A DNA stretch of 64,000 nucleotides from Candidatus Moraniibacteriota bacterium (GCA_049289395.1 JBATLQ010000045.1:5565-69564), one strand, 5' to 3'; positions 1 through 44,033 are shown, counted from the stretch's first letter. Made by a program: numbers and translations. The notes: generated by a model not told the origin, from the sequence alone.

Positions 1-1642
1 CATAGACACTTTGTTGGCAGTCGGAACGATAATTGACAGCTCTCCGTCAACACTAATTGACGCCGCTACGCCCTTGGGGAGAATAGCGACATTGAGATCG
101 GGGACATCGACTGGAGAACGAGCAAAGACATACTTGGCATAGTCCTTCTCGAAGGTAAACTCGAGGCGTTCGTAATCACCGCTCTGATTGACGACGGAGA
201 GGACTACATAGCGTGGCCCAGCCTTTGCTACGATGACAGTGATGCCATCCAGCTCGGGGGCTCGGGTAATCGCACATGCCTTGCCACCAAAGGGAACAAT
301 GAGAAATGTCGCCCCGAGCGCATCCTGCACTCCGACACCATCGAACCACTTCGTTGAATTCCGCAATGCCCCCCAGGTGTTTCCGGAAGACAAAAGCGGC
401 GTATTGAACATCGTGAGCACGAGTTCGGTGATACCACGATCACTCACAGCGAACAGTCGATCAGCAGACCGGAACAATCCATGGGCCTTGAGTGCGAAAG
501 AGAGCTCCATCGTCTTTCCCGATGCAGCCTCGACATACTTGAACCCAAGCACGCCATTCTCGATCGTACCGACGAGCCATCCCCTGTCAACCTTCACCAC
601 TTCGACATCGCGGGTCTTAACCACGCCAATAGTTTTCTTCATGGTGAGTTCGACAAGCGAACCATCAGCACACTGCACGACACCGCATGGCCAGACCCGA
701 AGAACAGGATTGCCAGTGGGAGCGTACAACTTCTCGAAGGCGAGTGAGCCCGTCGCGGTACTGACCACACGGAGAACGCGTGCCGCCTGCGCAACCTGTG
801 TCCCCACTTGAAGTGGTGATGGCGGAATGGAACGCTCACCGTGTTGAAACGCGGCCTCGTACCAGGAAAGTAGTGGTGTGGGAATACATGAGAAATCGCG
901 CACTGCCCTATTGAGAGTCACTCCAGGAGTGAAGACCGATTTATTTGCCTTCATTCTTTCGAGAAACTCGACCGGCTTGTAGCCCTGGAGCGTTCCTTTG
1001 TACGGGTGAGTCCCTGTGAAGAGCTGAAATGTAACAACCCCCCAAGCAAACCAGTCGCTTTCAACTGAGACCAGCTTGGTATGCCAATCGCGAATCGAAG
1101 GCATCTTGGCTACCGTAGGAGGAATTTGCCCTCCAAGCACCCACGAGTCGACATCAATCACCCTTGGTGAAGGTTTCGCCCTATCACCAAAGTTGACCAG
1201 CCAATTGAGTTCATTGGCATCGACCATAATCGCATTCGCCGCATGCGCATAGCGCACCGTATCATGCATACCACCTGCGAGAATCCTCGCCGACTCATCC
1301 GTGAAGCTTTCGCGTTGACGGAAATCATTCGTGAACACCCGCGACATCGGCTCACCTGCCGCAAAGGGCATGTAATAGCCAATGGGTTCACCGGAAGCCG
1401 CATCGCTAGCGATACCCTGCGGACCGACGATCGTCATATGCTTGATGAGTGCAAGCTGGCGGATCTTCTCGATCATGCCACGCTGCTTCATCTTGCCTGC
1501 GTTGATGTAAATCTTCACAATGGTGTCGCCAGTGCGATAGATGATGCCTTCACCACCCTGAGCCACATAATCATCGGGTCGGAGGGTGAAGGTTCCGCGT
1601 CCCTCAAGTGCTACTTTGCGAGTCTTGGTTTGAGTTGCCATG
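1..1642 (-). CDS. Ser/Thr protein kinase (TerY-P triad type); start at 1642, 3' end runs off window
   Basis: No in-window stop, so absent from ORF track. Manual translation from ATG (plus cat 1640-1642, GGAGAT RBS) gives MATQTKTRKV... with kinase-like motifs: G-rich loop QGGEGIIY, VKIY lysine, catalytic-loop-like HAANAIMVDANELNW, DVDSW and SDWFAWGVVTFQLFTG. Overlaps PP2C gene by 39 nt. Confidence 0.55.
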
Positions 1643-2545
1643 GATATCTCCTTGTTCAATCGGTTCGATCTCGACATGGATCACTGCATACGCAATGTCA
1701 TCCATCGGTCCTTTACCTTGGTTGCAGAAGTCCTTGAGTGCACGAATCATCCGGCGCTTCACGAATACGCCCTTCGTAGTCTTGAAGGAGAGGAGTGCGA
1801 TGACGACATCCTTCCAGTCGACGCCATCGACACGCAACACGCCATCGGTAAAGACAGCAATCACATCAATGTAATCTGTCAATGTTTCCTTGCTGATCGA
1901 TTGAGTGATGCCTCGCATACCATCGATAACAGCATGAGCCACCGTACCGCGGCAAACGAATTCTTTGCTGATGGGATCATAACTCCAATGCTCCTCGAAC
2001 AGAGCAGGGGTCGTCGGGTCGCCGTGCTCGCGAACATAGCCTGCCCCACCCGACTCTTCGCGATACTGTGGATAGAACGGCACCTTACCCCAATCGTATC
2101 GGAATATCGACACTGAACCATCTCGTGCCTTCGTAGCAATCACGCCATCCCCGACAAGGTGAATCACTCCTCCTTCTCTGGTGGCAAATGCGTAGCCACA
2201 GGTCGCCAGCATGTCATCTCGTGCCAGACCGAGTGCATGGCGCACCGTACCAAGTACGATACGCTGTTGTACGCCAACTTCAGTAACGACACCATGTTCA
2301 CCCGTATCCGATGAGAAATTGATATTGTCATGCCGGTCATAATAGGCACGGATTGCGGCGATAGAACCGAATGTGAGCACGCGTGCACCCATATCGGTCT
2401 CTCCGCCAGCAGAACACCCGTCCGAAATGACGGCACAGGCCATCCCATCCTCATACATCGAGAGCGCGTGATCCTGACAAGGCTTCCCGCTCCCGACATG
2501 CTCGCGTCCGATACTAAAGTGGTGGTCTGCAGAAAGTCTGATCAT
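1604..2545 (-). CDS. PP2C-family Ser/Thr protein phosphatase
   Basis: 313-aa ORF; metal-binding Asp-rich motifs (VISDGCSAGGETDMGAR, VFTDGV) typical of PP2C; strong SD AGGGAGGAGA upstream of ATG. Confidence 0.6.
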   Translation of the reverse strand: MIRLSADHHFSIGREHVGSGKPCQDHALSMYEDGMACAVISDGCSAGGETDMGARVLTFGSIAAIRAYYDRHDNINFSSDTGEHGVVTEVGVQQRIVLGTVRHALGLARDDMLATCGYAFATREGGVIHLVGDGVIATKARDGSVSIFRYDWGKVPFYPQYREESGGAGYVREHGDPTTPALFEEHWSYDPISKEFVCRGTVAHAVIDGMRGITQSISKETLTDYIDVIAVFTDGVLRVDGVDWKDVVIALLSFKTTKGVFVKRRMIRALKDFCNQGKGPMDDIAYAVIHVEIEPIEQGDIHGNSNQDSQSST

Positions 2546-2626
2546 TTGAATCTCCTCCCTCCGAATGAAAGAAAAAAGGGCAACGATTGACTCGCTGCCC
2601 CAGGTTGCTTGATGCCTCGCGCGCGA

Positions 2627-3385
2627 CTAGATTGTCGCGGCGATATTCTGACTCGGACCACCGGTACCGATCGCCTGCGATTGGCTCGAAATTGACTGAT
2701 CGATGAAGGCCCCCAGCTTGGCCAACTTGGCCGGGGTTGCCTCACCTGCATCGACATACTGCGTCATACCGGCCTCGGCATGAAATGTCTCGAGCGCCCG
2801 CTTGACACCAGACTCCATCGTATTGATGCCGATGAGAATCGAGATCATCGATTCGAGCTTCTCGCCCGTGACCGACTGCTCGAGCTCTTGGCGTACCATG
2901 TGCATGGTGGCGACCGAAGCGTTCTCACCGCCATCGGTGATGATGAAGGCAATGCCGTTGACGCCGAATTCCTGTTCGGTGAGTTCTTCGCCATACTTGT
3001 TCATCGCACCGACCCCGGAGTAGACCGCGTCGCAAAGCGGCGTCATGCCACCCGGATCCAAATCCGGGTAGGCGGCGACATCAATCTCGGCGAGGGGCTT
3101 GAAGCCATGAACTTCCTTCACACCGTTCGGGTACTTGTCCGAAAAGTAGATGACCCGCAGGAGCAGATTGTCACTCCGCGGCGACTTTTTGCAAGCAAGC
3201 ACAGCGGCTTCGAGCATCTTGCCCAGCTCGACCTTGAAACGAGCGGTCGAACCAGTCTCGTCCACCGCGATGGTGGCGAGGGTGTACTCGGATGCGCCGA
3301 GCGCGTCGAGCCGAGTTCCGCTGAAGCTGAAATTTCCAGCCAGCCGGTGTTGTTGCATATTGTCATCGTTCATCAAACGGGGCAT
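2627..3385 (-). CDS. von Willebrand factor A (vWA) domain protein, TerY-like
   Basis: 252 aa; MIDAS-like VDETGST near N-term and FIITDGGEN motif; AAGGAGAT RBS; sits directly upstream of PP2C and kinase genes. Confidence 0.6.
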   Translation of the reverse strand: MPRLMNDDNMQQHRLAGNFSFSGTRLDALGASEYTLATIAVDETGSTARFKVELGKMLEAAVLACKKSPRSDNLLLRVIYFSDKYPNGVKEVHGFKPLAEIDVAAYPDLDPGGMTPLCDAVYSGVGAMNKYGEELTEQEFGVNGIAFIITDGGENASVATMHMVRQELEQSVTGEKLESMISILIGINTMESGVKRALETFHAEAGMTQYVDAGEATPAKLAKLGAFIDQSISSQSQAIGTGGPSQNIAATI

Positions 3386-3428
3386 GTTGATCTCCTTGTT
3401 TCGGTTGGTTTGGGTGACGAATCACTGC

Positions 3429-4259
3429 TTAGCGCAGGAAATCGTCGGCGGTGGTGAGCGTCATGCCCTGAGACTGCATCGACTGCAGCCAGGCTTGGGC
3501 GATAGTCGGAAAATCCGGCGTACCCGGTCCCTGAGGAACCGGATGAGTGCAATCGGTGATGATGTGGAACTTCCTGATGTGTTCATCACCGATGTATTGC
3601 GCGATCTGATTGACCGTCCGCAGAACACAGTGCGACAGGGCTTCGCCGGCAACACCGATGATGTCGGCCTCGCGCATGACCTCAAGGAGACCGGTATTGA
3701 GCTGGGTTGACGGATCTTCGGGATCAGGAACTTCAGCCATGAGAGCACCGAAGTGTTCGGTGAACACATTGGTACCCTTGGTGACATAGTTCACATTGGC
3801 AAACTCCTTGCGCTCCCAAGCCTCGAGGGCGGCGAACAGATTCGCCTGCACGGCCGCGCCGGGCGTGCCGATGAGGCAGTGGTCCGGCCAGATGAGGTGA
3901 GCGTAGTTGCCCGGCGTGCTTTCCAGGGTACGACAGTACTCGAGAAGACGCTTGCGAAACGCGGGGTTACGCGGCGACCAGACGCCAGCCTCGATATCCT
4001 TGGCGAAGATGAGCGTGAACGGGTTCGGCATATTGCCGTCCTGGTCGCGCCACATGCCACGGTGCGAAACATCGATCACGCGGTGCGAATCGAGCGTCAC
4101 ATGAATGTCATCGAGCTTAGGACCGACCCGCCGGATCAGCCCGGCCAGACGATCCATGTCGGCATTAGCGCCGGGCACGGGAAGCGTCGAACTCGGGGAG
4201 TCCATGAAGTCGTTCTGGGGATCGATGATCATGAGGTGAACCTTCAGATTTTTTGACAT
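3429..4259 (-). CDS. isochorismatase-family cysteine hydrolase (nicotinamidase-like)
   Basis: N-terminal LMIIDPQNDF motif characteristic of isochorismatase/nicotinamidase fold; start chosen at MSKNLKV with GGAG RBS. Confidence 0.55.
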   Translation of the reverse strand: MSKNLKVHLMIIDPQNDFMDSPSSTLPVPGANADMDRLAGLIRRVGPKLDDIHVTLDSHRVIDVSHRGMWRDQDGNMPNPFTLIFAKDIEAGVWSPRNPAFRKRLLEYCRTLESTPGNYAHLIWPDHCLIGTPGAAVQANLFAALEAWERKEFANVNYVTKGTNVFTEHFGALMAEVPDPEDPSTQLNTGLLEVMREADIIGVAGEALSHCVLRTVNQIAQYIGDEHIRKFHIITDCTHPVPQGPGTPDFPTIAQAWLQSMQSQGMTLTTADDFLR

Positions 4260-4652
4260 GCTGAGATACTCCTGGGTTAATTGACATTGATATATCAGGA
4301 ACTTCGGGTGTCGAAACTCGCTCGTGATGAGTGAATTCCGACGATTTTCCTTCATTCCTATTGTTAAACAGCGTCCCAATAGCTGTAAAGCCTGGGGCAC
4401 TGTCTTACAAGGTGTTCCTTGAAAAACACTGCTCCGCGCTTTACTTTATGCACAACTACATCAACCTGAGAATCCAATCCACAACTCGCCCCTTCAGAGA
4501 AGGATGACATTACCATCTATGCAATATATTGTCAACCCCTGTTCCAGTTGTTCCATCACCCATTTTATAAAATTCTTCGCCAGCCCTTCTTTATACCCAT
4601 CCCACTACTAAGTGTAGTATATACACTATATATTTTCTGTCAAGGGAAACAT

Positions 4653-4682
4653 AAAAAAAATCCCTTCTCTGAAGGGATTTTG
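4653..4682. terminator. bidirectional intrinsic terminator downstream of ruvA
   Basis: A-run, stem TCCCTTC, loop TCT, stem GAAGGGA, then T-run. Confidence 0.6.
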
Positions 4683-6083: not shown

Positions 6084-7052
6084 TTAAAACTTCGCCACGA
6101 ACAAATACACCGCGAGGTCGGGACGGAGGGCGCCGGTCTTGATACGGGCATCCGCTTCGGCGAGGAATGCGAAGGATTTCTTCAATCGGTCCATCGGGAG
6201 CTTTGCTATCGCGGAGAGGCACTTGCGTACCGAATATTCCTTCATCCCTGTTTGATTCGCGATTGCCTGTGATTGGCGGATACCCCGGTCATACGCATCC
6301 CGCACCGAGACGAGGAGTCGCATTTGCCAGGCGCAGGATCCGAGTATGCGAAACGCGTCCTCGCCCTTCCCCAGCTCCCGCGCGAAGAGCTGTATCGCTC
6401 CATCGCGCCGCCCAGACACGATGAGGTCGAGTGCCTCGAACACCGTCCCACCCGGTGCAAAGGAAATAAACTCACGCAACTCGCCTTCAGATATATTCCC
6501 CTCGGATTTCAGGAAAGCAAGTTTCGCGATCTCACTCTCCAGACGATACATATTCGTCCCACACTCGAGGATAAGCGCGCGAAGTGCCGGAAGCGAGAGC
6601 GTCGCCATTGCATTCCGCTCAGCAAACAATTTCGACGCATACTGTTCCAATTCCTGTGGAAGCGGTTTTTCATTGAGCACGACAGGCTCCGCCTTTTTCG
6701 AAAGCAACACCTGAAGTTCATTTTTCTTCCTCAATTTTCCCGCCTCAGAAAAAAGGATATGAATGGATGCATCGGAAAAAAGTTCGGGGTGTGATTCCAA
6801 TGCCGTGCAAATGCGACCGGAAAAAAGTTCATTCGAGAGCACATTCCGAATCACGATCATCTTTTCTTCGGAAAATAATCCCGTCTGCCATGCCTCTTGC
6901 AAAACCCTCCAAGTATTCTCCTCCTCACCAGAAAGATCGAAATCAAGAATAAGTACCTGTGCCCCTTGGTGATGTGCTGAAAAATCAGCACGAAGCTCCC
7001 GCTCCCGACGCCTCACGAAATATTCGCTTTCCCCCGATAAAAATTGAATCAT
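6084..7052 (-). CDS. holA: DNA polymerase III delta subunit
   Basis: ~322 aa from MIQFLSGE; overall delta-subunit-like organisation (N-terminal clamp-loader fold, C-terminal helical domain); located near rpsT as in many bacteria. Confidence 0.5.
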   Translation of the reverse strand: MIQFLSGESEYFVRRRERELRADFSAHHQGAQVLILDFDLSGEEENTWRVLQEAWQTGLFSEEKMIVIRNVLSNELFSGRICTALESHPELFSDASIHILFSEAGKLRKKNELQVLLSKKAEPVVLNEKPLPQELEQYASKLFAERNAMATLSLPALRALILECGTNMYRLESEIAKLAFLKSEGNISEGELREFISFAPGGTVFEALDLIVSGRRDGAIQLFARELGKGEDAFRILGSCAWQMRLLVSVRDAYDRGIRQSQAIANQTGMKEYSVRKCLSAIAKLPMDRLKKSFAFLAEADARIKTGALRPDLAVYLFVAKF

Positions 7053-10820: not shown

Positions 10821-13454
10821 TTAAATCTCTCCCCAATTCTTCCCGATAGCGGTCTCGACGATGAGGGGTACCGAGAGAGTATACGCGCTTTCCATCACTT
10901 TCTTCAAATCCTTCGCGAATGATTCGGCGGTATCCTCCTTCACTTCGAAAATAAGTTCGTCATGCACCTGGAGGAGCATCTTCACCCGAAACGCATCCCG
11001 ATTATATTCCCTCACGAGCTGTTCCGCCGCGAGCATGGAGAGTTTCATGATATCCGCCGCGAGTCCCTGCACCGGCATATTGATCGCCATGCGTTCCCCG
11101 CTCCGTGCCACCATCACATTCTCGCTCCGGATCTCCGGTACCGATCGTCGCCGCCCGAGCTCCGTCTCCACAAATCCTTTTTCACGCGCACTCACCTTCA
11201 TCGATTCCATGAATTCCGCGACCTTCGGAAACTTCGCGAAGTATGCCGTGATAAATTCACCCGCCTCCTTCTGCCCGATTTCCGCCGCCTGCGCGAGGCC
11301 GAATGCGCCCATGCCGTACATGAGTCCGAAGTTGAACACTTTCGCCTGCCGACGCATATCATTCGTTACCAATTCCGGCGCGACCCGAAACACGACCGCC
11401 CCCGTCGTCCGATGCACATCCTCGCCTTTCTGAAATGCCTCCACGAGCGCGGGGTCACCCGAGAGATGTGCCATGACCCGCAATTCGATCTGCGAATAAT
11501 CCGCCCCGACGAAGAGATATCCATCCTCCGCTTCGAATGCGCCACGAATCTTTTCGCTCCACGCATTGCGGGCGGGAATATTCTGCAAATTCGGATTGGA
11601 CGAAGAGAGTCGCCCCGTCGCCGCGACCGCCTGATGATAGGTCGTGTGAAGCCTCGACTGCGCATCGACGAGCGTCGGGAGTGCATCGAGATAGGTCGTC
11701 TTCAATTTGAAGAGCTCCCGATACTGTTCGATGAGTCCCGCGATCGGATATTCCGCTTTCAATTTGATGAGTTCCGGTGAGGCAGTCGAGATGCCCGTCT
11801 TCGTCTTCTTCACACCCGCGGTCGGAATTTTCAAATCGACGAAGAGAATTTCTGCGAGTTGCTTCGGTGAATTGATATTGAATTCCCGTCCCGCATATTT
11901 GTAGATCTCCTGCTCGAGTCCGGTAATTTCCAGGGTGAGCTCTACTGAGAGCGCGCGAAACTTTTCCGTATTCAACCGGATGCCATTTTCTTCCATCTCT
12001 GCGAGTATCGGAAGGAGTGGCATTTCAATTTGTTCGAATACCGTTCGCACCGTTTTCCCCCCGACCTGATCCTTCGCCATCTCATCCATCTGCTCTGCAA
12101 AATGTTTTTCCAATTGAAGCACCGCCCGCGCCTTCTCTCCGGCTCCGGAGATCTCCTCCATACCGAGCTCCGAGAGTATCAGCCGTTCGAATGACACATC
12201 ACTCCCAGCACTGAGGAGGTATGCCGCGATTTCCACATCGAAAGCGATATTTTTCACAGCTATCTTCTCTGCCGAAAGCCCATGCATGATCGCTTTCCCA
12301 TCGAAGGCCGCTTTTCCGATAGATTCATTTTCGAAAAACTTTTTCAGAAAGACTTTCGTTTCTTCATTCCAGATAATCACTCCCGTTGATTTCTCTGTCG
12401 AGAGGCCAACACTCTCGAGAGCCGAACCAAAGAGCGATCCCATACCCTTTTCCAACCACACCCCAACCCGCATATTCTCTCCAAGAAAATCATTATACTC
12501 TCCCTCTGTCTTGATATTTTTTACCTTCTTTGTTCCCTGTTCCCTGTTCCCTGTTCCTTGTTCCTTGTTCCCTGTTCCCTGTTCACTCCCTGGCAGTCGT
12601 TTCAACAAACTGAAAAATCCGAGCTCCTGCAATAATGCTCCGACGATTTTTTTGTCATAATCTTTCACCACACACTTCTCGAGGTCGAGGGTCACCGGCG
12701 CATCGATACGAATCGCGCCAAGCGTCTTACTGAGGAATGCCTGTTCCTTATCTGTTTCCAATTTCTTCCGCACGGATTCTTTCACTTCTGGCAGATGCGC
12801 ATAGATATTTTCGAGCGTGCCGAACCCTACAAGGAGATCCGTCGCCGTCTTCGCACCGATACCCGAGACGCCCGGGATATTGTCCGAATTGTCCCCGGCG
12901 AGTCCCTTGTAATCCGGAATCTGCGACGGAGTGAAACCATATTTCGCGACGACCGCCGGCACATCATAGAGAACCAGATCCTTCAGACCCTTCCGTATCG
13001 AGAATACCTTGATATGATCATCCACGAGTTGCAGTGCATCATTGTCCCCCGTCACGATGATCACTTCGACACCCTGCGCGCCCGCCTGCTTCGCGATACT
13101 CCCGACGCAATCATCCGCTTCGAATCCGGCGAGCTCGTAGATCGGGATATTCATCGCGCTGACCACCTCTTTCACCCGCGGAATCTGCGCGTACAAATCA
13201 TCCGGTGCTTTCGTCCGCGTCGCTTTGTAGTCCGTATACAATTCATCCCGAAAAGTCTTCCCTTTCAAATCGAAAGACGCCGCGATATATTCCGGATGAA
13301 ACTTCTCCAAAACCGAGAGAAGCGTCGAAGTAAACCCGTACACCGCATGCACCACCTCGCCTTGCTTCGTCGTGAGTGGCGGCAAAGCATGATAGGAGCG
13401 GTGAATCAGCGCGTTCCCATCGATGAGCACCAGTACTTTTTTCTTGTTTTCCAT
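10821..13454 (-). CDS. polA: DNA polymerase I (5'-3' exonuclease + polymerase domains) with low-complexity EQGTGN insertion
   Basis: 5'-nuclease motifs VLVLIDGNALIHRSYHAL; polymerase motifs RRQAKVFNFGLMYGM and LQVHDELIFEV; listed 13493 start is TTG, ATG at 13454 (MENKKKVLVLIDG) preferred. Confidence 0.85.
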   Translation of the reverse strand: MENKKKVLVLIDGNALIHRSYHALPPLTTKQGEVVHAVYGFTSTLLSVLEKFHPEYIAASFDLKGKTFRDELYTDYKATRTKAPDDLYAQIPRVKEVVSAMNIPIYELAGFEADDCVGSIAKQAGAQGVEVIIVTGDNDALQLVDDHIKVFSIRKGLKDLVLYDVPAVVAKYGFTPSQIPDYKGLAGDNSDNIPGVSGIGAKTATDLLVGFGTLENIYAHLPEVKESVRKKLETDKEQAFLSKTLGAIRIDAPVTLDLEKCVVKDYDKKIVGALLQELGFFSLLKRLPGSEQGTGNKEQGTGNREQGTKKVKNIKTEGEYNDFLGENMRVGVWLEKGMGSLFGSALESVGLSTEKSTGVIIWNEETKVFLKKFFENESIGKAAFDGKAIMHGLSAEKIAVKNIAFDVEIAAYLLSAGSDVSFERLILSELGMEEISGAGEKARAVLQLEKHFAEQMDEMAKDQVGGKTVRTVFEQIEMPLLPILAEMEENGIRLNTEKFRALSVELTLEITGLEQEIYKYAGREFNINSPKQLAEILFVDLKIPTAGVKKTKTGISTASPELIKLKAEYPIAGLIEQYRELFKLKTTYLDALPTLVDAQSRLHTTYHQAVAATGRLSSSNPNLQNIPARNAWSEKIRGAFEAEDGYLFVGADYSQIELRVMAHLSGDPALVEAFQKGEDVHRTTGAVVFRVAPELVTNDMRRQAKVFNFGLMYGMGAFGLAQAAEIGQKEAGEFITAYFAKFPKVAEFMESMKVSAREKGFVETELGRRRSVPEIRSENVMVARSGERMAINMPVQGLAADIMKLSMLAAEQLVREYNRDAFRVKMLLQVHDELIFEVKEDTAESFAKDLKKVMESAYTLSVPLIVETAIGKNWGEI
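12528..12590. repeat. heptamer microsatellite (TGTTCCY)x8 inside polA coding sequence
   Basis: tgttccc tgttccc tgttccc tgttcct tgttcct tgttccc tgttccc tgttcac; encodes EQGTGN[KR] repeats; 3 related heptamers also at 6058-6080. Confidence 0.8.
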
Positions 13455-32714: not shown

Positions 32715-33599
32715 CTATCGCTTGAAGTCCGCACTGATTTTCCAAATACCTTTTTCACGGAATGCTGGGATCGTCTGATGCCTTGCCGCATTCGATATCC
32801 CTGACGCAGGCACATCATGCTTCTTCGCGTATTGAGCAAGAGTAATGATATCACCACCCTTCATATAGGTAATTCTTTTGTTCATCGATTCCATGAGAGC
32901 AAGCGTCACTACTCGCTCCATGGAGCTCGTATCACCGTCATTTCGATACTCTCCAAATGTTTTGTAATATTTCGATTTTTCCTTATCCCGAATAATAATC
33001 GATGGAAGTCCGAGTTGAAACATCTGATAATTCATGAGCACCCGACCAATGCGACCATTCCCATCGCAAAACGGATGGATTGTCTCGAAATCCAAATGGA
33101 ACTTCGCGATCTTATCCAAAAAATACGCGTCAATGTTTCCGGAGTATTCCAGAAGAAGCGAGCCGATCATATGTTCGACGCGCTCCGGTGCCGGTGCCAC
33201 ATGTGTCCCCACGCGGACATACTCTCCGGTCTTGCGAAATCGTCCCGCATACTCATCATTGATTCCGCCGAGGAGCATCTGATGGAGGAAGAGCATGAGC
33301 TCCTTATCAACACTCTTTTCCTGAGACTTGGTCCGGATATAATTCATAACCCGTGCCAAATTCTTCGCCTCGAAAATTTCACGGACACTGACATCCCGAG
33401 ACACCTCCATTTCCAAGAGAATCTTCTCCGTTTCCCGAAGCGTCAGCGTCGAATTCTCGATAGCATTCGAATTGTAGACACTCTCTGGAATTTCCGCTTC
33501 ATCCAAGAGGACAAGCAAGGACTCCTTCCCTTTGCGCAAGGTATCATATTCGTTCTTCAGTACCTGAAGACGCTTCCTGATATGTGCTGATGTAGCCAT
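32715..33599 (-). CDS. Fic-family protein (AMPylase/ Fic-DOC)
   Basis: 294 aa; canonical Fic motif HPFCDGNGRIGR. Confidence 0.8.
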   Translation of the reverse strand: MATSAHIRKRLQVLKNEYDTLRKGKESLLVLLDEAEIPESVYNSNAIENSTLTLRETEKILLEMEVSRDVSVREIFEAKNLARVMNYIRTKSQEKSVDKELMLFLHQMLLGGINDEYAGRFRKTGEYVRVGTHVAPAPERVEHMIGSLLLEYSGNIDAYFLDKIAKFHLDFETIHPFCDGNGRIGRVLMNYQMFQLGLPSIIIRDKEKSKYYKTFGEYRNDGDTSSMERVVTLALMESMNKRITYMKGGDIITLAQYAKKHDVPASGISNAARHQTIPAFREKGIWKISADFKR

Positions 33600-35452: not shown

Positions 35453-35610
35453 TCCCTACCCCCACACTAAAGGCTTCTTGAAGAATGGATTGCTCGAGGC
35501 GGTCGAGCACGCCGGAGCAGAGGTATTCCTCATTCGCTTCTCCTTATGATATTCAGACATACGTTTCACTTACGAGTTACATATTTTGGTATGTAACTAC
35601 AAAAAGGAAC

Positions 35611-36021
35611 TCAATCACTCTTCCGATCTCCTATGACTTGTATATCTGTGACACGGATATTCTCCAGACACTTCGAGTCACCATAGTACTCGCAATCATC
35701 AGGCTCTTTCTCTCCTGTTATTTTAAATACACCGTTTTCATTTTCCCTCACATATTTTACATAATCATCAATCCTTTTTTCATCATCCATCTTTTCAATC
35801 ATTGCAAAGAACCATGGATGATCCTCAAACTCATCTAGTACCCTTCCTTGTTCGATATCATAGTAAGAGAATCGCACATCCCCCGATGTTGAAACTCTTG
35901 AAAGAACGCCATATCTTTCTACAAAAGAACTCCTCCCTGCATTATGTATATTCACCCACAAAATAGAAGCCGCAATAGCAACAAGAAGGAATATTGAAAT
36001 ATAGAGTGAATTTTTTTTCAT
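35611..36021 (-). CDS. hypothetical secreted/membrane-anchored protein
   Basis: signal-peptide-like MKKNSLYISIFLLVAIAASILW; last gene of minus-strand operon. Confidence 0.4.
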   Translation of the reverse strand: MKKNSLYISIFLLVAIAASILWVNIHNAGRSSFVERYGVLSRVSTSGDVRFSYYDIEQGRVLDEFEDHPWFFAMIEKMDDEKRIDDYVKYVRENENGVFKITGEKEPDDCEYYGDSKCLENIRVTDIQVIGDRKSD

Positions 36022-36025
36022 GATA

Positions 36026-36784
36026 TTATTCCATTTTGGATAAAACTTTAATTTCATTCGCCATCCTTATCCATTCTGCATTACTTATTCCATGTGCCAT
36101 TGGATGAGGTATTACAAAATAATTGATGCCTTCCTTTTTACAATAATGAAATCCCTCCGACTTCTTAAATTGACACTTCGCTATTTCAATCCAATGAGGA
36201 AGGTACATAAATGAACAGAAAATTACAGTGGTTGGTCGATGCTTGCTGATATATTTTTGATACAACTTAATCCTCATTGGCATTACCTCCTGAAAATACA
36301 CCCCTCGTGTCATCAAATAATCAATTTTAAAATTAAAATAAACCCAATCCAGCTCGCGTATTGAGCTCGATGGTAATGGCATTAGATCAAGAATACAATG
36401 ATTGCTATCTCGTCGACCAAATCTCGTTTTCTGATATTCTCTCACAATTTCAGTAGTCACAGATTGCTCCTCAAAGGCAAGCAACATGGTGATCAGCTTA
36501 CTCCAAGTTCTTTGAATAGGAGGTCGTTCCCCTAAAAAATATCTTATGTGATCTGGGACATCCGTCATGTCATCACAAATATCAACAACCAAACTATCCT
36601 TTGTTGCTTTGAAGCGAGGCTTCAGATCTTCTAATTCGCCAGCAAACCCCTCTTCCATACACACAAACCAAATATTTGAGTCAATATTTCCATAACCCAA
36701 AAAATTATTGATCCTATTTTCTATAAGTTCTTTCGAAATCATTGCTTTTTTGAAGAAATATTTTTCAATTCCACTTATGAACAC
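36026..36784 (-). CDS. hypothetical protein with uracil-DNA-glycosylase-fold-like motifs (divergent)
   Basis: GYGNIDSNIWFVCMEEGF resembles UDG family-4 motif GEGxpxArlMfVGEAPG; NHCILDLMPLP resembles NvVKCRPP; C-terminal VIPHPMAHGISN resembles HPSxLLRN; by-eye only. Confidence 0.3.
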   Translation of the reverse strand: MFISGIEKYFFKKAMISKELIENRINNFLGYGNIDSNIWFVCMEEGFAGELEDLKPRFKATKDSLVVDICDDMTDVPDHIRYFLGERPPIQRTWSKLITMLLAFEEQSVTTEIVREYQKTRFGRRDSNHCILDLMPLPSSSIRELDWVYFNFKIDYLMTRGVYFQEVMPMRIKLYQKYISKHRPTTVIFCSFMYLPHWIEIAKCQFKKSEGFHYCKKEGINYFVIPHPMAHGISNAEWIRMANEIKVLSKME

Positions 36785-36895
36785 ACGGATTCCGTGTTCG
36801 CCTCCCCTTGTAGTATTCGGACATAGTGGTTAGTGATAAAAAATGGTATCTAGCCTCTCTTCTATTTTTGGATTGTTGAACATAATTCTTCTTAT

Positions 36896-38887
36896 TTATC
36901 CTTTTGAGGTGATAGCCTCCTTCTTGAGACTTAGAATCCTATTCACAACCTTTTCGAGAGACGCACTGCTTTCCCCTGCTGCTTTTGCGCTAGTTATAAT
37001 ATCAGTAACTATATTCGGATTCTTTATTGCGTGTTTCTTCTTTGTTACTCCATACTTTTTCTGACATTCCACAAGAATCCTTTCAAATTCAACAGTGCCG
37101 ATTTCCTCACAAAGAGTGCTTTCAAGTTTGTCTTTAAAGCACGAAAATTTATCTTCAATATATGCTGGCCATTCCTCCTCAATACTACCGACCAATCTGA
37201 GCAATTTTTTATTCTCATCAGGATTCGCCTTTCCATCTGCTTTTCCACACAACTCACACGCTCCAGATGTCTCGCCTTTTCCATAATCGCCATCCCAAAC
37301 TATATATGTCGGTATTCCTAATTTTGTGAAAATTATGTACGGTCTATCTATATTCGTTTTTCCTCCACAAGGAATTATAGAAAATCCATCCCCCTCCAAT
37401 TCGTGCCCCATTGCTTTTGCGGTACCCAATATAGCCGCCCTATCATCTTCACCCTCAACAAGAATATTCGCATCAGCAAAAAATCCCTCATTCATCCAAG
37501 GCGTCATTATGGCGTGAAGCCTGGGAATCAAACTGGCTCCAGTATACTGTTGTCCGCGCTTCCCGTCAGCTTCCCAGCTAGCTAAAGCAACTTCATCTAG
37601 TGTCGTATGAATAACCTTTGTTATTTTCGGTTTCTCCACCTCGTTTACTAACTTACGAAAAAGCCTTATCTGGTCAATCCTATCGATGCCCACAAAATGA
37701 GGAGAGTGAGTACAATATATAATTTGAGTGTTATCGGCTACTCCTGGCATTTTTCCGTCTGCTAACTGTCTTAGTATTTTTGCCAAATGTCTCTGTCTAT
37801 TCGGATGCTGATAAATTTCTGGCTCCTCGATTGCCAAAATAAGCGTGGGTAAATCCGTTTCAGTTACTCCTTCATCGGTCTTTGCACTCTTAACTTGTTC
37901 CATTGCCAAATGCTGAAGTAGGGTCAAAATAAATGCTCGCTGTAGCCCGTGCCCGGTTTTTTCAACTGACGACTCAAATCCGTCTTCAATCAGCTTTATA
38001 TCAGCTTGTGGCATAGGCATAGTAATGCCGGCAAGTGGAAGCCAATTCAATCCAACTTGAGCATTTGGAACATAAATCTTCATCGTTTCAGTCATCTGTT
38101 TTTCTAGAACCTTCAATTCAGTAAGCTTTTCAGGATCCATTATTTCCTTATACTTTTCCTCGGTCTTATTTTTCAATTTAACATACTCCTCCTTTCTCAC
38201 AAGAACACTTCTTACAACCAAATCCATCAAGCGAGAAAACGTAGAGCTTTTTCCATCTTCAATATCAATACCCGCATTACGAACAGCAGGTATAAAGAGA
38301 AACTGCGAAAACTTTCCCAGATAACCCTTCGCCACGCTCTTAAAACCGAAAAATTGTCCGTCATCTCTCATACGAACACATTGTGTACGATTCTCATTCT
38401 CCCATTTATCCAACTCAATTACAGTTGTCTGATTCTTCCAATCCGGCAATCTCTGATATTTTTCATTTTTTTTTAATTCAACATATTTCTCTTTCTTGTC
38501 TCTCGCTGAAGAAGCATTCCTCACTGAAGCGAAATCTGGATTCTGCAAACTTGCACCGTGATACTTAAAACTCGGTTTACCATCAGTCCAATCAATTACA
38601 AGCTCAATAGTTAATTTGTCGTCCTGTAAATAAGAACCAAAAAGACGTTTTGCTTCTTCTGAAAGCTTTTTATATGTAACGGCTACGACTATAGGCGATG
38701 ATGTATCCTTATTATAATAATCATCCTGTTTAATGCTTTGAGAAAAAGCATAAAATATCTCAAGCGCCTTCAGGAAAGTCGACTTTCCTGTCCCATTTGC
38801 CCCAACCAATGCCGTCAGATCCTCCAAATAAACTTCTTCATCCAATAGCGATCTATAATTTTTAATTAAAACAGATTCAATCAACAT
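36896..38887 (-). CDS. OLD-family ATP-dependent nuclease (ABC-type ATPase + C-terminal Toprim)
   Basis: 663 aa; Walker A LVGANGTGKST, Walker B LILAIEEPEIYQHP, H-loop IIYCTHSPHF; C-terminal Toprim motifs ILVEGEDD and IVWDGDYGKGE. Confidence 0.7.
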   Translation of the reverse strand: MLIESVLIKNYRSLLDEEVYLEDLTALVGANGTGKSTFLKALEIFYAFSQSIKQDDYYNKDTSSPIVVAVTYKKLSEEAKRLFGSYLQDDKLTIELVIDWTDGKPSFKYHGASLQNPDFASVRNASSARDKKEKYVELKKNEKYQRLPDWKNQTTVIELDKWENENRTQCVRMRDDGQFFGFKSVAKGYLGKFSQFLFIPAVRNAGIDIEDGKSSTFSRLMDLVVRSVLVRKEEYVKLKNKTEEKYKEIMDPEKLTELKVLEKQMTETMKIYVPNAQVGLNWLPLAGITMPMPQADIKLIEDGFESSVEKTGHGLQRAFILTLLQHLAMEQVKSAKTDEGVTETDLPTLILAIEEPEIYQHPNRQRHLAKILRQLADGKMPGVADNTQIIYCTHSPHFVGIDRIDQIRLFRKLVNEVEKPKITKVIHTTLDEVALASWEADGKRGQQYTGASLIPRLHAIMTPWMNEGFFADANILVEGEDDRAAILGTAKAMGHELEGDGFSIIPCGGKTNIDRPYIIFTKLGIPTYIVWDGDYGKGETSGACELCGKADGKANPDENKKLLRLVGSIEEEWPAYIEDKFSCFKDKLESTLCEEIGTVEFERILVECQKKYGVTKKKHAIKNPNIVTDIITSAKAAGESSASLEKVVNRILSLKKEAITSKG

Positions 38888-38946
38888 ACATGAAAAATCA
38901 AAAAGGGATAAGTCTATTTGCTATATAAATTAAATCAATTAGTTTT

Positions 38947-39168
38947 TTAAAATTTGGATTGGTATCTTGGTTTATATTTGTTAATATAAGCATTCAAACC
39001 ATTATGCTCGCACGCTAATCTTTTCATATTTTCAATATGATTCGATCCTGCACTCATGTATGTATAGATATAAACTGATCCATCATGAAATTGGACTTTG
39101 ATATAGTCATTACCAATTTCAAAAGCATCTACATTTGAATCACCATCTCTATCATTATATGGTTGCAT
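38947..39168 (-). CDS. KTSC-domain small protein
   Basis: 73 aa; IKVQFHDGSVYIYTYMSAG matches KTSC pattern. Confidence 0.4.
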   Translation of the reverse strand: MQPYNDRDGDSNVDAFEIGNDYIKVQFHDGSVYIYTYMSAGSNHIENMKRLACEHNGLNAYINKYKPRYQSKF

Positions 39169-39182
39169 ATAATTTCTATTTA

Positions 39183-39911
39183 TTACGAAATGAATTTAGT
39201 GGTCGCTTCAACAAGCTTAACAAAGCATTGTTTTATATCAGTCCAATCATTACTATTTATCTCCACTTTGTCGCCATCATTATAATTTTTAATATTAGCA
39301 CTAAATACCCTTGTCGCACTTACAAATTTCTTATCTATAATACCTCCTTTATGCACCAACACATGCCTAAGTTCCAAATAAAAACATATCTTTTTCTCAA
39401 TCTCATCTTCCAAGGAAATATTTTTTGATAAATATTTTTCAAAATTTCTTTTTATTGCCTGAAAATCCTGAAAATTAGGCTTTACTTTTTCAAGAACAAG
39501 CCTGCCAAATCCACCCCGATAGGTAAGTTTATTTTTAACTAGTTCAGCCAAAGTAATTTTTATCCCTTCTAACTCTTTATTTTCCAGATTGATTCCATTG
39601 AAACCATTCAAAGCATTTTCAAAATACTTCTTCAGAGTCGCCTCTAAACTTGAAACTGCAAGGATACACATTTGCGAGTATATAACTTTAAAATTGTTTT
39701 CAATTGATCTATTGTTAATATTTTCCAGTCCGCTCTTCGCATTATCCAAAGCTATTTTCACAGTTGTTTGTATTCCAGAAGTATTAATCGCTACAGTCAA
39801 GGCTTGAACTGCCATATCTTTAATCAAACTTGGTGTCCGTTCAAGTTTATCGATATCAGCAAGTTCTTTTTTAAAATTCTTGAGGTAATCAGTCGTTGGC
39901 AATCTTGACAT
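39183..39911 (-). CDS. hypothetical protein with HEPN-like R-x4-H motif
   Basis: 242 aa, mostly helical; ELRHVLVHKGG fits HEPN Rx4-6H signature; first gene of operon. Confidence 0.35.
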   Translation of the reverse strand: MSRLPTTDYLKNFKKELADIDKLERTPSLIKDMAVQALTVAINTSGIQTTVKIALDNAKSGLENINNRSIENNFKVIYSQMCILAVSSLEATLKKYFENALNGFNGINLENKELEGIKITLAELVKNKLTYRGGFGRLVLEKVKPNFQDFQAIKRNFEKYLSKNISLEDEIEKKICFYLELRHVLVHKGGIIDKKFVSATRVFSANIKNYNDGDKVEINSNDWTDIKQCFVKLVEATTKFIS

Positions 39912-39963
39912 ATTTTTTTATACAAACATCCATTATAAAAATCCTTTTTAAACTCCTTTCTTA

Positions 39964-39994
39964 TGAAAACAAACACCCCGGAAGTCCGGGGTGA
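39964..39994 (-). terminator. intrinsic terminator (minus strand) separating DpnI-like operon from OLD operon
   Basis: perfect 9-bp stem CACCCCGGA-AGT-TCCGGGGTG; on minus strand followed by UUUGUUUUC. Confidence 0.5.
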
Positions 39995-40140
39995 TGGAAT
40001 AATCTTGCGAATATGGCTCTTTCCTTTCTTCTTTTTCTATTTAGGATGGGTTTTATTTTTTGTTAGTCCTAGCATACCACAACATGTGAAAAAATACAAG
40101 TGTCAAATCTTTTGAAAAATAAACAAATTTTCATACATAA

Positions 40141-40356
40141 TTATGAACCTGTCCAATCCTCTCTGCACTGTGCGCACCGTTCATTGCCAGTATGATCAAA
40201 ACAGTCAGTAAATTTGTTCGGCTCATATCTTTGCTCATCTTCATTCCAAAAAAACTCGTCATCAATGAGTGTCTCGACAAGCTTTCTTTCTGCTCCGCAA
40301 TGCTGGCAAGCATGCCTAGGAAAATTTTTTGTTTGTACATCCATATTCCCGATCAT
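40141..40356 (-). CDS. small zinc-ribbon protein (71 aa)
   Basis: CQHCG...CAQC Cys pairs; 15 nt downstream of DpnI-like gene. Confidence 0.35.
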   Translation of the reverse strand: MIGNMDVQTKNFPRHACQHCGAERKLVETLIDDEFFWNEDEQRYEPNKFTDCFDHTGNERCAQCREDWTGS

Positions 40357-40371
40357 TGATCGAAAACAAAT

Positions 40372-41139
40372 CTATGTCAAACGATACTGTCCATAACCAA
40401 CAAACTCCAGATAACCCTTATTCCTCAAAATCTGTAACTGTTGCCTTATTTTAGGTCTTATATTTTTGTTTTCAGGATGAATTATAGATAAATCGTACTC
40501 GAAAGCATACATATCCTGTAGGGTAAATTTCTTTTGATTGAGTGAATCAATACAATTCATAATATCCAAGATCCACCCTTTGCTATCCGATTTTTTAATT
40601 TTTTTCAAAAATAATGTCTTCTGCCATTTTTCCAGTACGCTCTTTTTATCCGTCTCTTTCCCATTTTCTACATAGAATATTTGTCCAGCCTTTGGAATCT
40701 TTGAGAATAAAATATTCGAGCCAATCCAGCCAGCGCGTCTGGCATTTTCTCTGAGTGGTTTCCTTTTTTCAATAATCTCGGAGATAAAAAAATGTTTCGG
40801 TATAACAAAAAAATCATACACCTTTGAGGCTTCAGCTATATACCCCATAAAAAAGAAATTTGGTTTTTCTGATGAATTGATTCTTTTGATCATTTGAGAA
40901 TAGGCTCCGGCGGAAACCTTTTTACCAATTTTCCCATTTTTAGATTTTAACTCAAAGTCTTCAACACATGTTTTACAATAAAAATCAGCAACTGGTTTAT
41001 TATTACCATAATTGTAAATACCATTGCCACAATTCGGACAATAAATCTCATGAAGCACCCATGCCTCACTTAAAACACGAGCTTTTTGAGAAACACTCCT
41101 ATACTGAATCGCTAATTTCGTATCAAAAAATAAATTCAT
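40372..41139 (-). CDS. DpnI-like (Dam-replacing family) methyl-directed restriction endonuclease
   Basis: 255 aa; SQKARVLSEAWVLHEIYCPNCGN, ADFYCKTCVEDFELKSK (PD-ExK-like with Zn ribbon), NFFFMGY, RRAGWIGSNI and C-terminal winged-helix-like IRQQLQILRNKGYLEF, as remembered for DpnI. Confidence 0.55.
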   Translation of the reverse strand: MNLFFDTKLAIQYRSVSQKARVLSEAWVLHEIYCPNCGNGIYNYGNNKPVADFYCKTCVEDFELKSKNGKIGKKVSAGAYSQMIKRINSSEKPNFFFMGYIAEASKVYDFFVIPKHFFISEIIEKRKPLRENARRAGWIGSNILFSKIPKAGQIFYVENGKETDKKSVLEKWQKTLFLKKIKKSDSKGWILDIMNCIDSLNQKKFTLQDMYAFEYDLSIIHPENKNIRPKIRQQLQILRNKGYLEFVGYGQYRLT

Positions 41140-41235
41140 AATTGATGATCAATAATCTCCACTGAAAACTCATTTCATAAATGAAATGGTGTCACTATGA
41201 CAAACAATCCTATTTGTCCAAGAACCAATCCATAA

Positions 41236-41694
41236 TCAGAGATTAATTTGATACTGCAGTCGCCTTGTCTTAATCCGCTGATTTAATTCTTCAGATGTCA
41301 ACATTGCGTACCCCTTGCTTTCCGGGTGAAGGCTGACGAAACAAAAACGGTACTGCTTACCCAGTTTATCTGCTAATCGAAACTCATTTTCTGTTGCGCC
41401 AAAGAAAAATCCATCAGGATTATTAACGAGTTTTTTCTGAGTTGTTTTAAGTTCAATCAATACAATCTGCTCAAATGGAACATCCATAATACTCATACCA
41501 CTTACCATTGGAAGAAGAACGAGATCAAATGCACGAGAAAATGTCATTGGCAAATCAAGGCGCCTCAAAATCTCCTTTCGTTCTTCTTTGCTTGGCTTCT
41601 TAAAGCGAGCATCTGATTCAAGTAAAAAATCAACCGCTGATGTCTCGGTTATATTATTCTTAATTGTTGCGCCATATGAATGTTGGTGTGCCAC
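41236..41694 (-). CDS. PD-(D/E)XK-like nuclease superfamily protein (152 aa)
   Basis: AFDLVLLP ... IVLIELKTT matches D...ExK core. Confidence 0.35.
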   Translation of the reverse strand: MAHQHSYGATIKNNITETSAVDFLLESDARFKKPSKEERKEILRRLDLPMTFSRAFDLVLLPMVSGMSIMDVPFEQIVLIELKTTQKKLVNNPDGFFFGATENEFRLADKLGKQYRFCFVSLHPESKGYAMLTSEELNQRIKTRRLQYQINL

Positions 41695-41937
41695 GATCTG
41701 ATTAGATCATACAAAAGCACCCAGATCAAGATCGCCACCAGAAAACTATTCCCCATAATAAAAATTCCCCCATTCTCCCACCCCAGTCGGAATAGCACAA
41801 GTTCCGACGGGAGAAACAAAAAAATCCCTTCTCGGTGGGAATTTCATCCTATTTTCTCTCCCCAGTGACCTTACATGTGGTGTGCCCCAGTTACATTCCG
41901 AATGATGTAACGGGGCAGGCGGGGTAAACCACCCTAT

Positions 41938-42474
41938 TTATTCAGCAACAAATCGAATCGAGATCTTTTTGTCCATATACTGTCGAAGGTGTCCGATGAG
42001 AGTCGCAGCGACCTCATTCATTTCCATACTTTCAACTTCTTTCAATATGGTAATTTCAGCCAAATCTTCGCTCGTCTCATCGTTGATAATCGTAATCACA
42101 CCAGGCCTCTTCCCTATGACGATAGATTTCAATACTCCTTTCTCTTTTTTGGTTATCTTCAATTCATCAACCATCATGCTGTATGTTTCTGCTGCTGTTT
42201 CATAATCCTTTTTCGACTCAACCAGCCCTGCTATCCTATTGACGGCTAAGCCATTCTTCATATGCTCACCCATTATTTTCGATAGTGAAAAAACCTCCTC
42301 ACGGGGAGCCTGCTTCAATTCCAATTCTTCGAGAGAAAGCCCCATCGCCAGCTGATATGAAACGAAAAGTTCCTCGCTACTGATATTGTTGCTTTTCGAA
42401 AAAGATATTATCTCTTCCAACTGCTTCTCTTGCGGATCATCTCCCGTCTTCGGAAACTCCATTGGATTTTTCAT
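41938..42474 (-). CDS. hypothetical protein (178 aa)
   Basis: ORF with coding-like composition, acidic; no family recognised. Confidence 0.4.
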   Translation of the reverse strand: MKNPMEFPKTGDDPQEKQLEEIISFSKSNNISSEELFVSYQLAMGLSLEELELKQAPREEVFSLSKIMGEHMKNGLAVNRIAGLVESKKDYETAAETYSMMVDELKITKKEKGVLKSIVIGKRPGVITIINDETSEDLAEITILKEVESMEMNEVAATLIGHLRQYMDKKISIRFVAE

Positions 42475-42697
42475 ACTATATTTGTTATTTCTTCCAATCC
42501 CGAATTACTACCCCACCGCGGACGCGGGTGACCACTACTTTTTGCTTCTCTCTCCATCCAAGCTCGCGGACGAGCTCAATCGGGAGCGTCAGCCCAATAG
42601 ACTTTCCACCGAGTTTGGTAAGTTTCCGAACGCTTTTATCCGTTGCTTGTTTTGGCATAATATTTTCTTTAGTTTATCGCCTCATTTTCAGTCCCCC

Positions 42698-42726
42698 TTG
42701 TCAATTTTGTCAATATTTGGTATATT
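42698..42726 (+). promoter_or_regulatory. sigma70-like promoter TTGTCA-17-TATATT
   Basis: TTGTCA 42698-42703, spacer attttgtcaatatttgg, TATATT 42721-42726. Confidence 0.5.
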
Positions 42727-42732
42727 CTAGTT

Positions 42733-42790
42733 GGTCGCGAGGAAACCCGCGCCCATCAAAATGGAGTCTCCTTGGGAGGCTCTTTTTTGA
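42733..42790 (+). ncRNA. candidate ~55-nt small RNA (promoter-to-terminator unit), antisense to 3' end of DUF3800 gene
   Basis: promoter above; terminator hairpin GAGUCUCC-UUG-GGAGGCUC (one G.U) then UUUUUU at 42765-42790; a GCGAGG/CCCGCG 5' hairpin. Confidence 0.3.
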
Positions 42791-43565: not shown

Positions 43566-43723
43566 GGATTTCTACGATATGCGTCTACCAATATAATTAC
43601 ATACCTCGTTACATATATCCTATCACCTCCCCATTCCCACGGCAATTTACGCCGAGTCCCTTTATGAAGGGAATTTCATCGCTCTTGAAAGCAAAAATCC
43701 GCCACTCGGGCGGATATTTTCCA

Positions 43724-44020
43724 CTAATCCATGCTCACCTTGATCTCGCGTATCGCTTCGAGGCCGAGCATGGAATTCGTTTTTTCGGCGATATTCTTTC
43801 TATTGAGCCAGATTTCACTCGCCCAGAGGGAACTCCGGAAGCCGACGAAGAGCTTTTTCTCCTTATAGAACCTCGGTTCTATATTTTCCTCACCCCTCGT
43901 CCCATATTCCGCGTGGATCACCTTATTGAAAACCGAGAAAATCGTCTTTTCATCGATTTCTTTCAGCTCTTTCGGTGCTTGAAAGTTCTTTTTTTCGAGA
44001 TATTGTCTGAGATCAAGCAT
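43724..44020 (-). CDS. DUF721/DciA-like small protein
   Basis: 98 aa; RSSLWASEIWLNRKNIAEKTNSMLGLEAIREIKV resembles DUF721; immediately downstream of dnaN. Confidence 0.5.
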   Translation of the reverse strand: MLDLRQYLEKKNFQAPKELKEIDEKTIFSVFNKVIHAEYGTRGEENIEPRFYKEKKLFVGFRSSLWASEIWLNRKNIAEKTNSMLGLEAIREIKVSMD

Positions 44021-44033
44021 ACAAGTGGCTCCA

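Follow-up and report, generated by a model that had tools for sequence, protein, structure and literature searches.

We analysed a 64,000-nt stretch of DNA from Candidatus Moraniibacteriota bacterium (GCA_049289395.1 JBATLQ010000045.1:5565-69564), the whole of which is referred to here as the window, with particular attention to four genes at its left end (positions 1-4259) encoding an isochorismatase-fold hydrolase (PncA'), a von Willebrand factor A (vWA) protein, a PP2C-type Ser/Thr phosphatase and a Ser/Thr kinase. With moderate confidence, we interpret this block as the promoter-proximal part of a nicotinamide adenine dinucleotide (NAD) salvage operon under the control of NrtR, in which the four genes would form a single module, expressed in two tiers, that places the entry of nicotinamide into salvage under phosphorylation control. 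The association of the cassette with NAD metabolism is well supported, and the gating of PncA' by phosphorylation is a mechanism that we infer. An earlier, first-pass annotation of the window had described four co-directional minus-strand genes in this block, with the triad in the order vWA, PP2C and kinase; mapping of open reading frames (ORFs) bore out the former, and profile searches and predicted structures upheld both the order and the domain identities. The hydrolase and vWA genes are separated by 43 nt and the vWA and PP2C genes by 81 nt, while the PP2C and kinase genes do overlap as had been stated, but by 38 rather than 39 nt.

The case for a role in NAD metabolism rests in the first place on the conservation and genomic context of the cassette in the candidate phyla radiation (CPR; Patescibacteria), to which the source genome belongs. 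Among 61 CPR-clade loci drawn from species-representative genomes, 55 have PncA', vWA, PP2C and kinase in this order, the remainder being cut by contig ends, and mean identities within the clade are 0.59 for PncA' and 0.585 for vWA. The hydrolase had previously been regarded as a non-standard addition to the triad; across approximately 100 loci it is instead the invariant partner. A proposed connection to Ter stress-response loci likewise found no support, since the neighbours in the relatives examined are NAD genes under NrtR, and no Ter or restriction gene was found among them. These CPR neighbours include NrtR, nicotinate phosphoribosyltransferase (NAPRT; pncB), NAD synthase, nicotinamide and nicotinate mononucleotide (NMN/NaMN) adenylyltransferases, phosphoribosyl pyrophosphate (PRPP) synthase and NAD kinase. 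L153 and L152 are the closest relatives for which longer contigs exist. In L153 (83% identical), the kinase gene is followed by genes for an NMN adenylyltransferase (NMNAT)-like protein and NAPRT and by a gene of 661 aa, and in L152 (75% identical) by those for an ADP-ribosylglycohydrolase (11900-12886), NadE, a NadD-like protein and NAPRT. Upstream in L152, NrtR and an extra Nudix gene (6570-7049) precede PncA', and the ADP-ribosylglycohydrolase and Nudix genes tie the cassette to ADP-ribose turnover. By analogy with these relatives, the same continuation into NAD genes is expected past the left edge of the window; on the window side, the cassette is bordered by the core genes ruvA, rpsT and holA. 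Two fused enzymes were also observed in CPR regulons, namely a 457-aa NMNAT-NAD kinase fusion (L004, 13734-15107) and a 399-aa protein joining nucleoside 2-deoxyribosyltransferase-like and Nudix domains (L006, 7727-8926).

A second line of evidence comes from the DNA upstream of PncA'. An unbiased search for inverted repeats in this region yielded TAGTGT-N7-ACACTA, and the box TAGTGTA-N5-TACACTA, allowing up to two mismatches, occurs at 117 sites in 0.92 Mb of CPR loci where about four were expected (~30-fold enrichment). In 37 of 57 CPR loci the box is found no more than 400 nt upstream of PncA', and it also precedes NAPRT, NadE, NrtR, NAD kinase and NadD genes. The window contains exactly one site with two or fewer mismatches in its 64 kb, the NrtR-type operator AAGTGTAGTATATACACTA at 4610-4628, which departs from the palindrome at one position. 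NrtR operators have a GT-N7-AC core, which the box fits, and ADP-ribose suppressed DNA binding in vitro by both NrtR proteins tested (PMC2330246). An nrtR gene is present in 33 of the 61 related loci, including L152. The region's best promoter match, a predicted minus-strand sigma-70-type promoter (4616-4643; TTGACA-16-TATACT, 11 of 12 matches), overlaps with the operator at its spacer and -10 element. On its 5' side the unit is bounded by a terminator-like minus-strand hairpin of the upstream gene ruvA (4657-4681). From the predicted transcription start to the ATG of PncA', a minus-strand leader of ~350 nt (4260-4609) is the longest among the compared loci, the median distance from box to start in relatives being 148 nt. 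Its sequence is not conserved in L003, and an Rfam scan of the leader returned no family at E ≤ 1.

Within the cassette, a conserved structure separates the first two genes from the last two. The vWA-PP2C spacer holds a terminator-like hairpin followed by a T-run (GGGGCAGCGAgtcaaTCGTTGCCCT TTTTTCTTTC; 2567-2601, minus strand) with a local folding energy of -18.5 kcal/mol. This GC-rich hairpin is kept as a structure across relatives but not as a sequence: 57 of 59 vWA-PP2C spacers contain a hairpin of -12 kcal/mol or stronger, their mean folding energy is -19.9 kcal/mol compared to -9.6 kcal/mol for shuffled sequences, and 48 of the 59 are terminator-like, as opposed to 0-4 in the shuffles. The two halves also differ in GC content at third codon positions (GC3), which is 0.73 in both PncA' and vWA, near that of rpsT (0.76), and 0.545 in PP2C and 0.58 in the kinase, i.e. 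at the window mean of 0.54 ± 0.11. Based on the conserved hairpin, the GC3 split and the pairing of PncA' with vWA in phages (see below), we suggest two expression tiers, with abundant PncA' and vWA, and PP2C and kinase kept scarce through dependence on read-through.

The PncA' gene (3429-4259, minus strand; 276 aa) was assigned the ATG at 4259, which has an upstream AGGAG ribosome-binding site, although the longest ORF reaches 4400. Its identification as an isochorismatase-fold, nicotinamidase-like hydrolase was supported by a profile search of the Protein Data Bank (PDB) and by the annotation of homologues, some of which match PF00857 or carry a nicotinamidase name. A profile built from 25 PncA' sequences matched nicotinamidases only (29iv, 2h0r, 3pl1 and 1ilw; E-values from 6e-6 to 6e-4). 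Residues D13, K161 and C211 align with the Asp of VDMQNDF, the Lys of DKG and the Cys of CV in yeast Pnc1 (2h0r), which we take to be its catalytic triad, and D57 and H59 (LDSH) and H127 (WPDHC) align with the DWH and WPVHC motifs of the same structure, presumably its Zn ligands. All six residues are invariant in more than 100 sequences, including the phage versions. At the sequence level, PncA' is thus shown to be a long, divergent nicotinamidase-type hydrolase with an apparently intact Asp-Lys-Cys triad and Asp-His-His metal site, being 60-96 residues longer than the matched nicotinamidase chains (180-216 aa). Several relatives of PncA' have unusual architectures. Eukaryote-like proteins with PncA' domains (P0417, P0365, P0476, P0418 and P0501) include some that are tandem PncA' repeats, and one eukaryote-like protein of 1629 aa combines ankyrin repeats, an ion-transport region resembling transient receptor potential (TRP) channels and two PncA' domains. 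By analogy, such fusions recall enzyme-derived ligand sensors on channels. In some Patescibacteria, a conserved domain of ~230 aa (alignment A4) is fused to the N-terminus of PncA'; sites of this domain are L019 5412-6086 and 10988-11671, L025 1144-1818, L027 8431-9105, L036 8340-9023, L048 1905-2597 and L033 8363-8965, and in L019 it also occurs as a free-standing protein encoded directly after the kinase gene. It has no Pfam or NCBIfam match, and a search of the PDB gave only an insignificant short-repeat match.

Direct scans of the window proteins against Pfam, NCBIfam, PADLOC and PHROGs yielded little, and the domain calls obtained in this way fall short of what the first-pass annotation had supposed. 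The phosphatase (1604-2545, minus strand; 313 aa) is the only one of the four window proteins to pass Pfam, matching PF13672 (PP2C_2) with 51 bits (E = 1.7e-13) against a cut-off of 24, and the kinase reached 18.6 bits with the Pkinase model, below its cut-off of 31.7. The vWA protein (2627-3385, minus strand; 252 aa) had no hit to any Pfam model, VWA included, and its profile matched nothing among PDB sequences. The three weak calls (vWA, hydrolase and kinase) are rescued by profiles and structures. In the case of vWA, an AlphaFold2 model (mean predicted local distance difference test (pLDDT) score of 85.5, with a tail below 55) gave 208 Foldseek matches to vWA structures at E ≤ 1e-3. Its metal-ion-dependent adhesion site (MIDAS) comprises D42-x-T-x-S46, T115 and D151 (alignment A1). 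The C-terminus ends in a Ser/Gly-rich segment (SISSQSQAIGTGGPSQNIAATI; general form SxSSQSQxLGTGGPS) that is invariant despite its poor predicted order, and both the MIDAS and the tail residues are kept in the phage versions. Homologues with 60-65% identity are found across many Parcubacteria lineages and are named 'YegL' by the Joint Genome Institute (JGI), and a weak similarity to YegL itself was detected (hhalign probability 24.5%, E = 8e-4).

The acidic residues D25, D42, D133, D234, D282 and D283 of the phosphatase are conserved in CPR and phage versions and are taken to be, on sequence grounds, its metal-binding residues; the PCQD and FTDG motifs are shared with Escherichia coli PphC. 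The kinase gene (1-1641, minus strand) starts with an ATG at 1641 and runs out of the window at its first position, so that the edge removes the 3' part and 547 of the 580 codons are present. Completing the protein beyond the edge, as had been suggested, was achieved with a database sequence (P0121; MFZ1720005.1) of 580 aa and 100% identity, encoded on a 69,590-bp contig of a Candidatus Moraniibacteriota metagenome-assembled genome, while Logan contigs extend it by 23 codons only. The kinase profile matches protein kinases, and the architecture comprises a YegI-like Hanks-type domain (residues ~1-275), a linker (280-289) and a seven-bladed beta-propeller (290-580). Consistent with this, the structural model (pLDDT 85.6) has a short linker joining the kinase domain to a C-terminal half made up entirely of beta structure, whose 29 strands fit seven blades, and the best Foldseek match is the kinase-WD40 half of LRRK2. 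Comparison of the kinase domain with YegI gave an hhalign probability of 96.8% (E = 2e-10, 197 columns). The atypical catalytic loop remarked on previously is indeed present at residues 133-147 (HAANAIMVDANELNW), and the catalytic and DFG loops read MVDANELN and IDVDSW. The atypical loop is, however, a trait of the YegI family and not a sign of decay, since YegI departs from the canon in the same way and has nonetheless been reported to autophosphorylate (bioRxiv 10.1101/819920). A small-molecule kinase of the aminoglycoside phosphotransferase (APH)/choline-kinase type was also considered and discarded, because both the C-lobe motif (DWFAWGVVTFQLFTGxHPYKG) and the fold matches identify a protein kinase.

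The cassette is not confined to bacteria. Scanning the IMG/VR database with the vWA alignment identified 61 contigs ranging from 22 to 620 kb with a GC content from 27 to 69%, all or most of which carry PncA', vWA, PP2C and kinase. Clustering separated the sequences into a CPR clade and a phage clade; the former takes in six 'viral' contigs (L089, L091-L094 and L096) and the latter three contigs from metagenome-assembled genomes (L065, L067 and L068) labelled Gammaproteobacteria or Armatimonadota, and contig misclassification in either direction is likely. In the phage clade, the four genes lie within ±8 kb of one another in 40 of 46 distinct loci, 36 of which have the same order. Direct adjacency is most often kept between PncA' and vWA (31/46), the other pairs being adjacent in 15 of 41 and 19 of 40 cases. 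Many of these loci also carry NAPRT, NadE, NMNAT or NrtR. Two GenBank phages, LR745208.1 (485 kb) and LR756511.1 (595 kb), have the four genes in order with ORFans between them, for which Pfam returned a single sulfotransferase only. Genes adjoining the phage copies have strong matches to phage families, e.g. phrog_1735 with E = 1e-281. Although the two clades share only 25-50% identity, their four proteins agree in the catalytic, MIDAS and tail residues. The flanks of three of the loci (L111, L130 and L137) encode T4-type RNA ligases 1 and 2, RtcB and an ATP-dependent DNA ligase.

Taken together, we propose the following sequence of events, each step of which is conditional. NAD cleavage would generate ADP-ribose, which would release NrtR from its box and allow the operon to be transcribed, with the hairpin holding PncA' and vWA high and kinase and phosphatase low. 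The propeller of the kinase might dock the tail of the vWA protein, which the kinase would then phosphorylate and the PP2C phosphatase would dephosphorylate, thereby resetting the switch. Depending on its phosphorylation state, the vWA protein could bind PncA' through its MIDAS and either gate the enzyme or load its metal. The outcome would be control of the irreversible conversion of nicotinamide to nicotinate that feeds PncB, NadD and NadE, and in phages the same module may serve to rebuild NAD during infection. A stronger version of this proposal, in which the four proteins form one phospho-regulated complex acting as a switchable committed entry to Preiss-Handler-type NAD+ rebuilding in both CPR bacteria and huge phages, is possible, and we put it forward tentatively.

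A number of observations weigh against our interpretation of the block as an NrtR-controlled, phospho-gated salvage module. No nrtR gene was found within the 64-kb window, which covers all but up to ~5.6 kb of the 69.6-kb source contig, and the operator box is lacking in the phage clade. The PncA' of the window has no Pfam match and scores 18 bits with NCBIfam PRK11609, for which the cut-off is 174. With 1056 clusters at E ≤ 1e-30, PncA' belongs to a large family, whose domains occur without the triad in the eukaryote-like proteins. In L003, L009, L011, L013, L015 and L033, the same regulon includes another isochorismatase-family gene, which is shorter and has motifs like those of nicotinamidases, and PncA' may therefore serve a purpose other than bulk nicotinamide deamidation. 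Lastly, the kinase could act on PncA' itself, on PncB or on a target outside the locus.

Some of these observations fit an alternative that we consider unlikely, in which PncA' is a nicotinamide sensor or hydrolyses another amide, and the four proteins signal NAD cleavage to targets outside the locus. The second isochorismatase-family gene in several relatives agrees with such a role, as do the ADP-ribosylglycohydrolase and Nudix genes flanking the L152 cassette and the ~230-aa domain that PncA' carries in some lineages, and the fusion of PncA' to ankyrin/TRP-like channels and in tandem repeats suggests a ligand-sensing module. Set against this is the invariance of the six catalytic and metal residues, phage versions included, which argues for catalysis. 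The metal site of nicotinamidases binds the unsubstituted pyridine nitrogen, and this site is retained in PncA'; moreover, no other nicotinamidase is encoded within the L004 or L153 locus. Quite unlikely, in our estimation, is that the vWA protein is principally a maturation factor or metallochaperone for PncA', with kinase and phosphatase only tuning assembly. An intact MIDAS encoded next to a metal-dependent enzyme and the tight pairing of the two proteins with equal conservation would be in keeping with this, and the nicotinamidases of Mycobacterium tuberculosis and E. coli have been reported to need metallochaperone-like help (PMC6941528). Maturation by itself, however, leaves the invariant tail and the propeller unexplained. 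Known vWA maturation systems have an AAA+ partner, whereas none of the MoxR type is present among the annotated neighbours.

The view of the first-pass annotation, that the block is a stand-alone, horizontally acquired TerY-P-type stress or anti-phage island with an accessory hydrolase, appears very unlikely to us. In its favour are the triad architecture, the YegI-like kinase, reports of TerY-P-like modules as defence systems (PMC10542128) and the GC content of the block, which at 55.4% is the highest of any 4.26-kb stretch in the window (runner-up 54.5%) and exceeds the 47.5% of the rest. The claimed GC-richness is in this respect accurate, but the remainder is not AT-rich as had been supposed, the window averaging 48% GC and its remainder 49.1% once an island at 35-43 kb is set aside. 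Adjoining genes are equally GC-rich (ruvA 56%, rpsT 53%, holA 52%, DUF3048 55% and ispH 54%), and we therefore reject the GC excess as evidence of transfer; within the block, unusually high GC3 is confined to PncA' and vWA, which account for most of the excess. Given that the composition equals that of flanking core genes (52-56% GC) and that cassette order is conserved across Patescibacteria, within a metabolic regulon, recent horizontal acquisition is unsupported; the nearest cassette homologues are in related Moraniibacteriota-type contigs. Arguing further against a defence island, PADLOC had no family for vWA, PP2C or hydrolase at E ≤ 1 (assuming that PADLOC v2 contains TerY-P models) and gave only weak, generic kinase hits (PD-T4-6 and mad6) for the kinase, phages themselves carry the cassette, and a truly foreign-looking island is found elsewhere in the window, at 35.6-43.6 kb. 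Finally, an ordinary pncA might lie beside an unrelated signalling triad by coincidence, for which the one argument is that all the parts come from widespread families. The retention of the four genes together in two deeply diverged clades, even in phage genomes where other genes have been inserted between them, makes this scarcely credible.

The AT-rich island at 35600-43600 has a GC content of 32-41% (37% over 35-43 kb) compared to 48% for the window, and its acquisition by horizontal transfer is far more plausible than that of the block at 1-4259. Besides several ORFs for which nothing matched, the island encodes an AAA_15-TOPRIM protein of the OLD family (36896-38887), a methyl-directed restriction enzyme resembling DpnI (40372-41139) and a DUF3800 protein (42756-43565); a Fic/DOC-family gene (32715-33599) lies just outside it. 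The cumulative GC skew is lowest near 44 kb, where dnaN was identified with Pfam (44034-45185), and the N-terminus of the ORF next to dnaN (45445-46914) makes it a candidate dnaA. A replication origin is probably located around 44000-47000, directly beside the AT-rich island.

If correct, the proposed phospho-gated salvage module has implications in several directions. The role of TerY-P/YegL-PphC-YegI systems is unsettled even in E. coli, and the constant enzyme and regulon seen here offer a concrete target, which would be the first defined metabolic target of a triad of the TerY-P/YegLKI type. A bacterial NAD salvage enzyme controlled by Ser/Thr phosphorylation would likewise be a first. CPR bacteria are thought to depend on salvaged cofactors, and a conserved and regulated entry step to nicotinamide salvage would lie at the heart of their reliance on hosts. 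Phage copies beside NAPRT, NadE and RNA-repair genes point to the regulated rebuilding of NAD after immunity has destroyed it, in effect a fourth phage NAD+ reconstitution strategy, and the cassette connects the CPR and huge-phage gene pools.

Several components of this arrangement are already known, including NrtR-controlled pncA-pncB operons, jumbo-phage pncB-nadD-nadE clusters and the phage NAD+ reconstitution pathways NARP1-3. The combination of a nicotinamidase with a vWA-PP2C-kinase set was not found described in the NrtR, jumbo-phage, viral NAD and NARP3 literature, of which journal coverage was incomplete. NrtR-regulated nrtR-pncA-pncB-nadD-nadE salvage operons were described by Rodionov et al. 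2008 (PMC2330246), and share with the window a GT-N7-AC operator over the promoter and a pncA-type first gene, and with the relatives of the window the co-regulation of nrtR, pncB, nadD, nadE and prs. Here, by contrast, three signalling genes separate the pncA-type gene from the others, PncA' exceeds classical PncA by about 70-90 residues and scores below the family cut-offs, and neither the CPR lineage nor the TAGTGTA-N5-TACACTA consensus is included in that study. Jumbo phages with Preiss-Handler gene clusters have also been described (PMC11662467), and the phage cassettes likewise adjoin NAPRT, NadE and NMNAT in many contigs and would rebuild NAD starting from nicotinamide, but none of the NARP1-3 enzymes (Adps/Namat, Nampt/Nmnat and PnuC/NadR) is part of the cassette. 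A further parallel is with vWA proteins that act as co-factors of enzyme activation, namely CbbO, NorD and CoxE, together with MoxR ATPases. As in those systems, a MIDAS-containing vWA protein is encoded beside its candidate target metalloenzyme, whereas the place of the AAA+ partner is here taken by a kinase-phosphatase pair; a MoxR-vWA pair has been described in phages (PMC7824862).

A close resemblance is to the E. coli yegL-pphC-yegI genes and to TerY-P as defined in PMC10542128, which have the identical three domains in identical order. The window kinase and YegI share a GGEG loop, the absence of HRD and the replacement of DFG by ID-x-DS, with VGDxxQxS and DSD being the YegI versions; the vWA protein and YegL both have a MIDAS and a Ser-rich C-terminal end; and both phosphatases are of the PP2C_2 type. 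In contrast, the vWA protein resembles YegL only weakly in sequence, and YegI has a membrane segment and TerY-P kinases are reported to have a zinc ribbon or an OB fold (PMC10542128), where the window kinase ends in a soluble seven-bladed beta-propeller. The window triad is a distinct branch of the TerY-P-like architecture, one in which a constant nicotinamidase-like enzyme and an NrtR operator are added to the three signalling genes.

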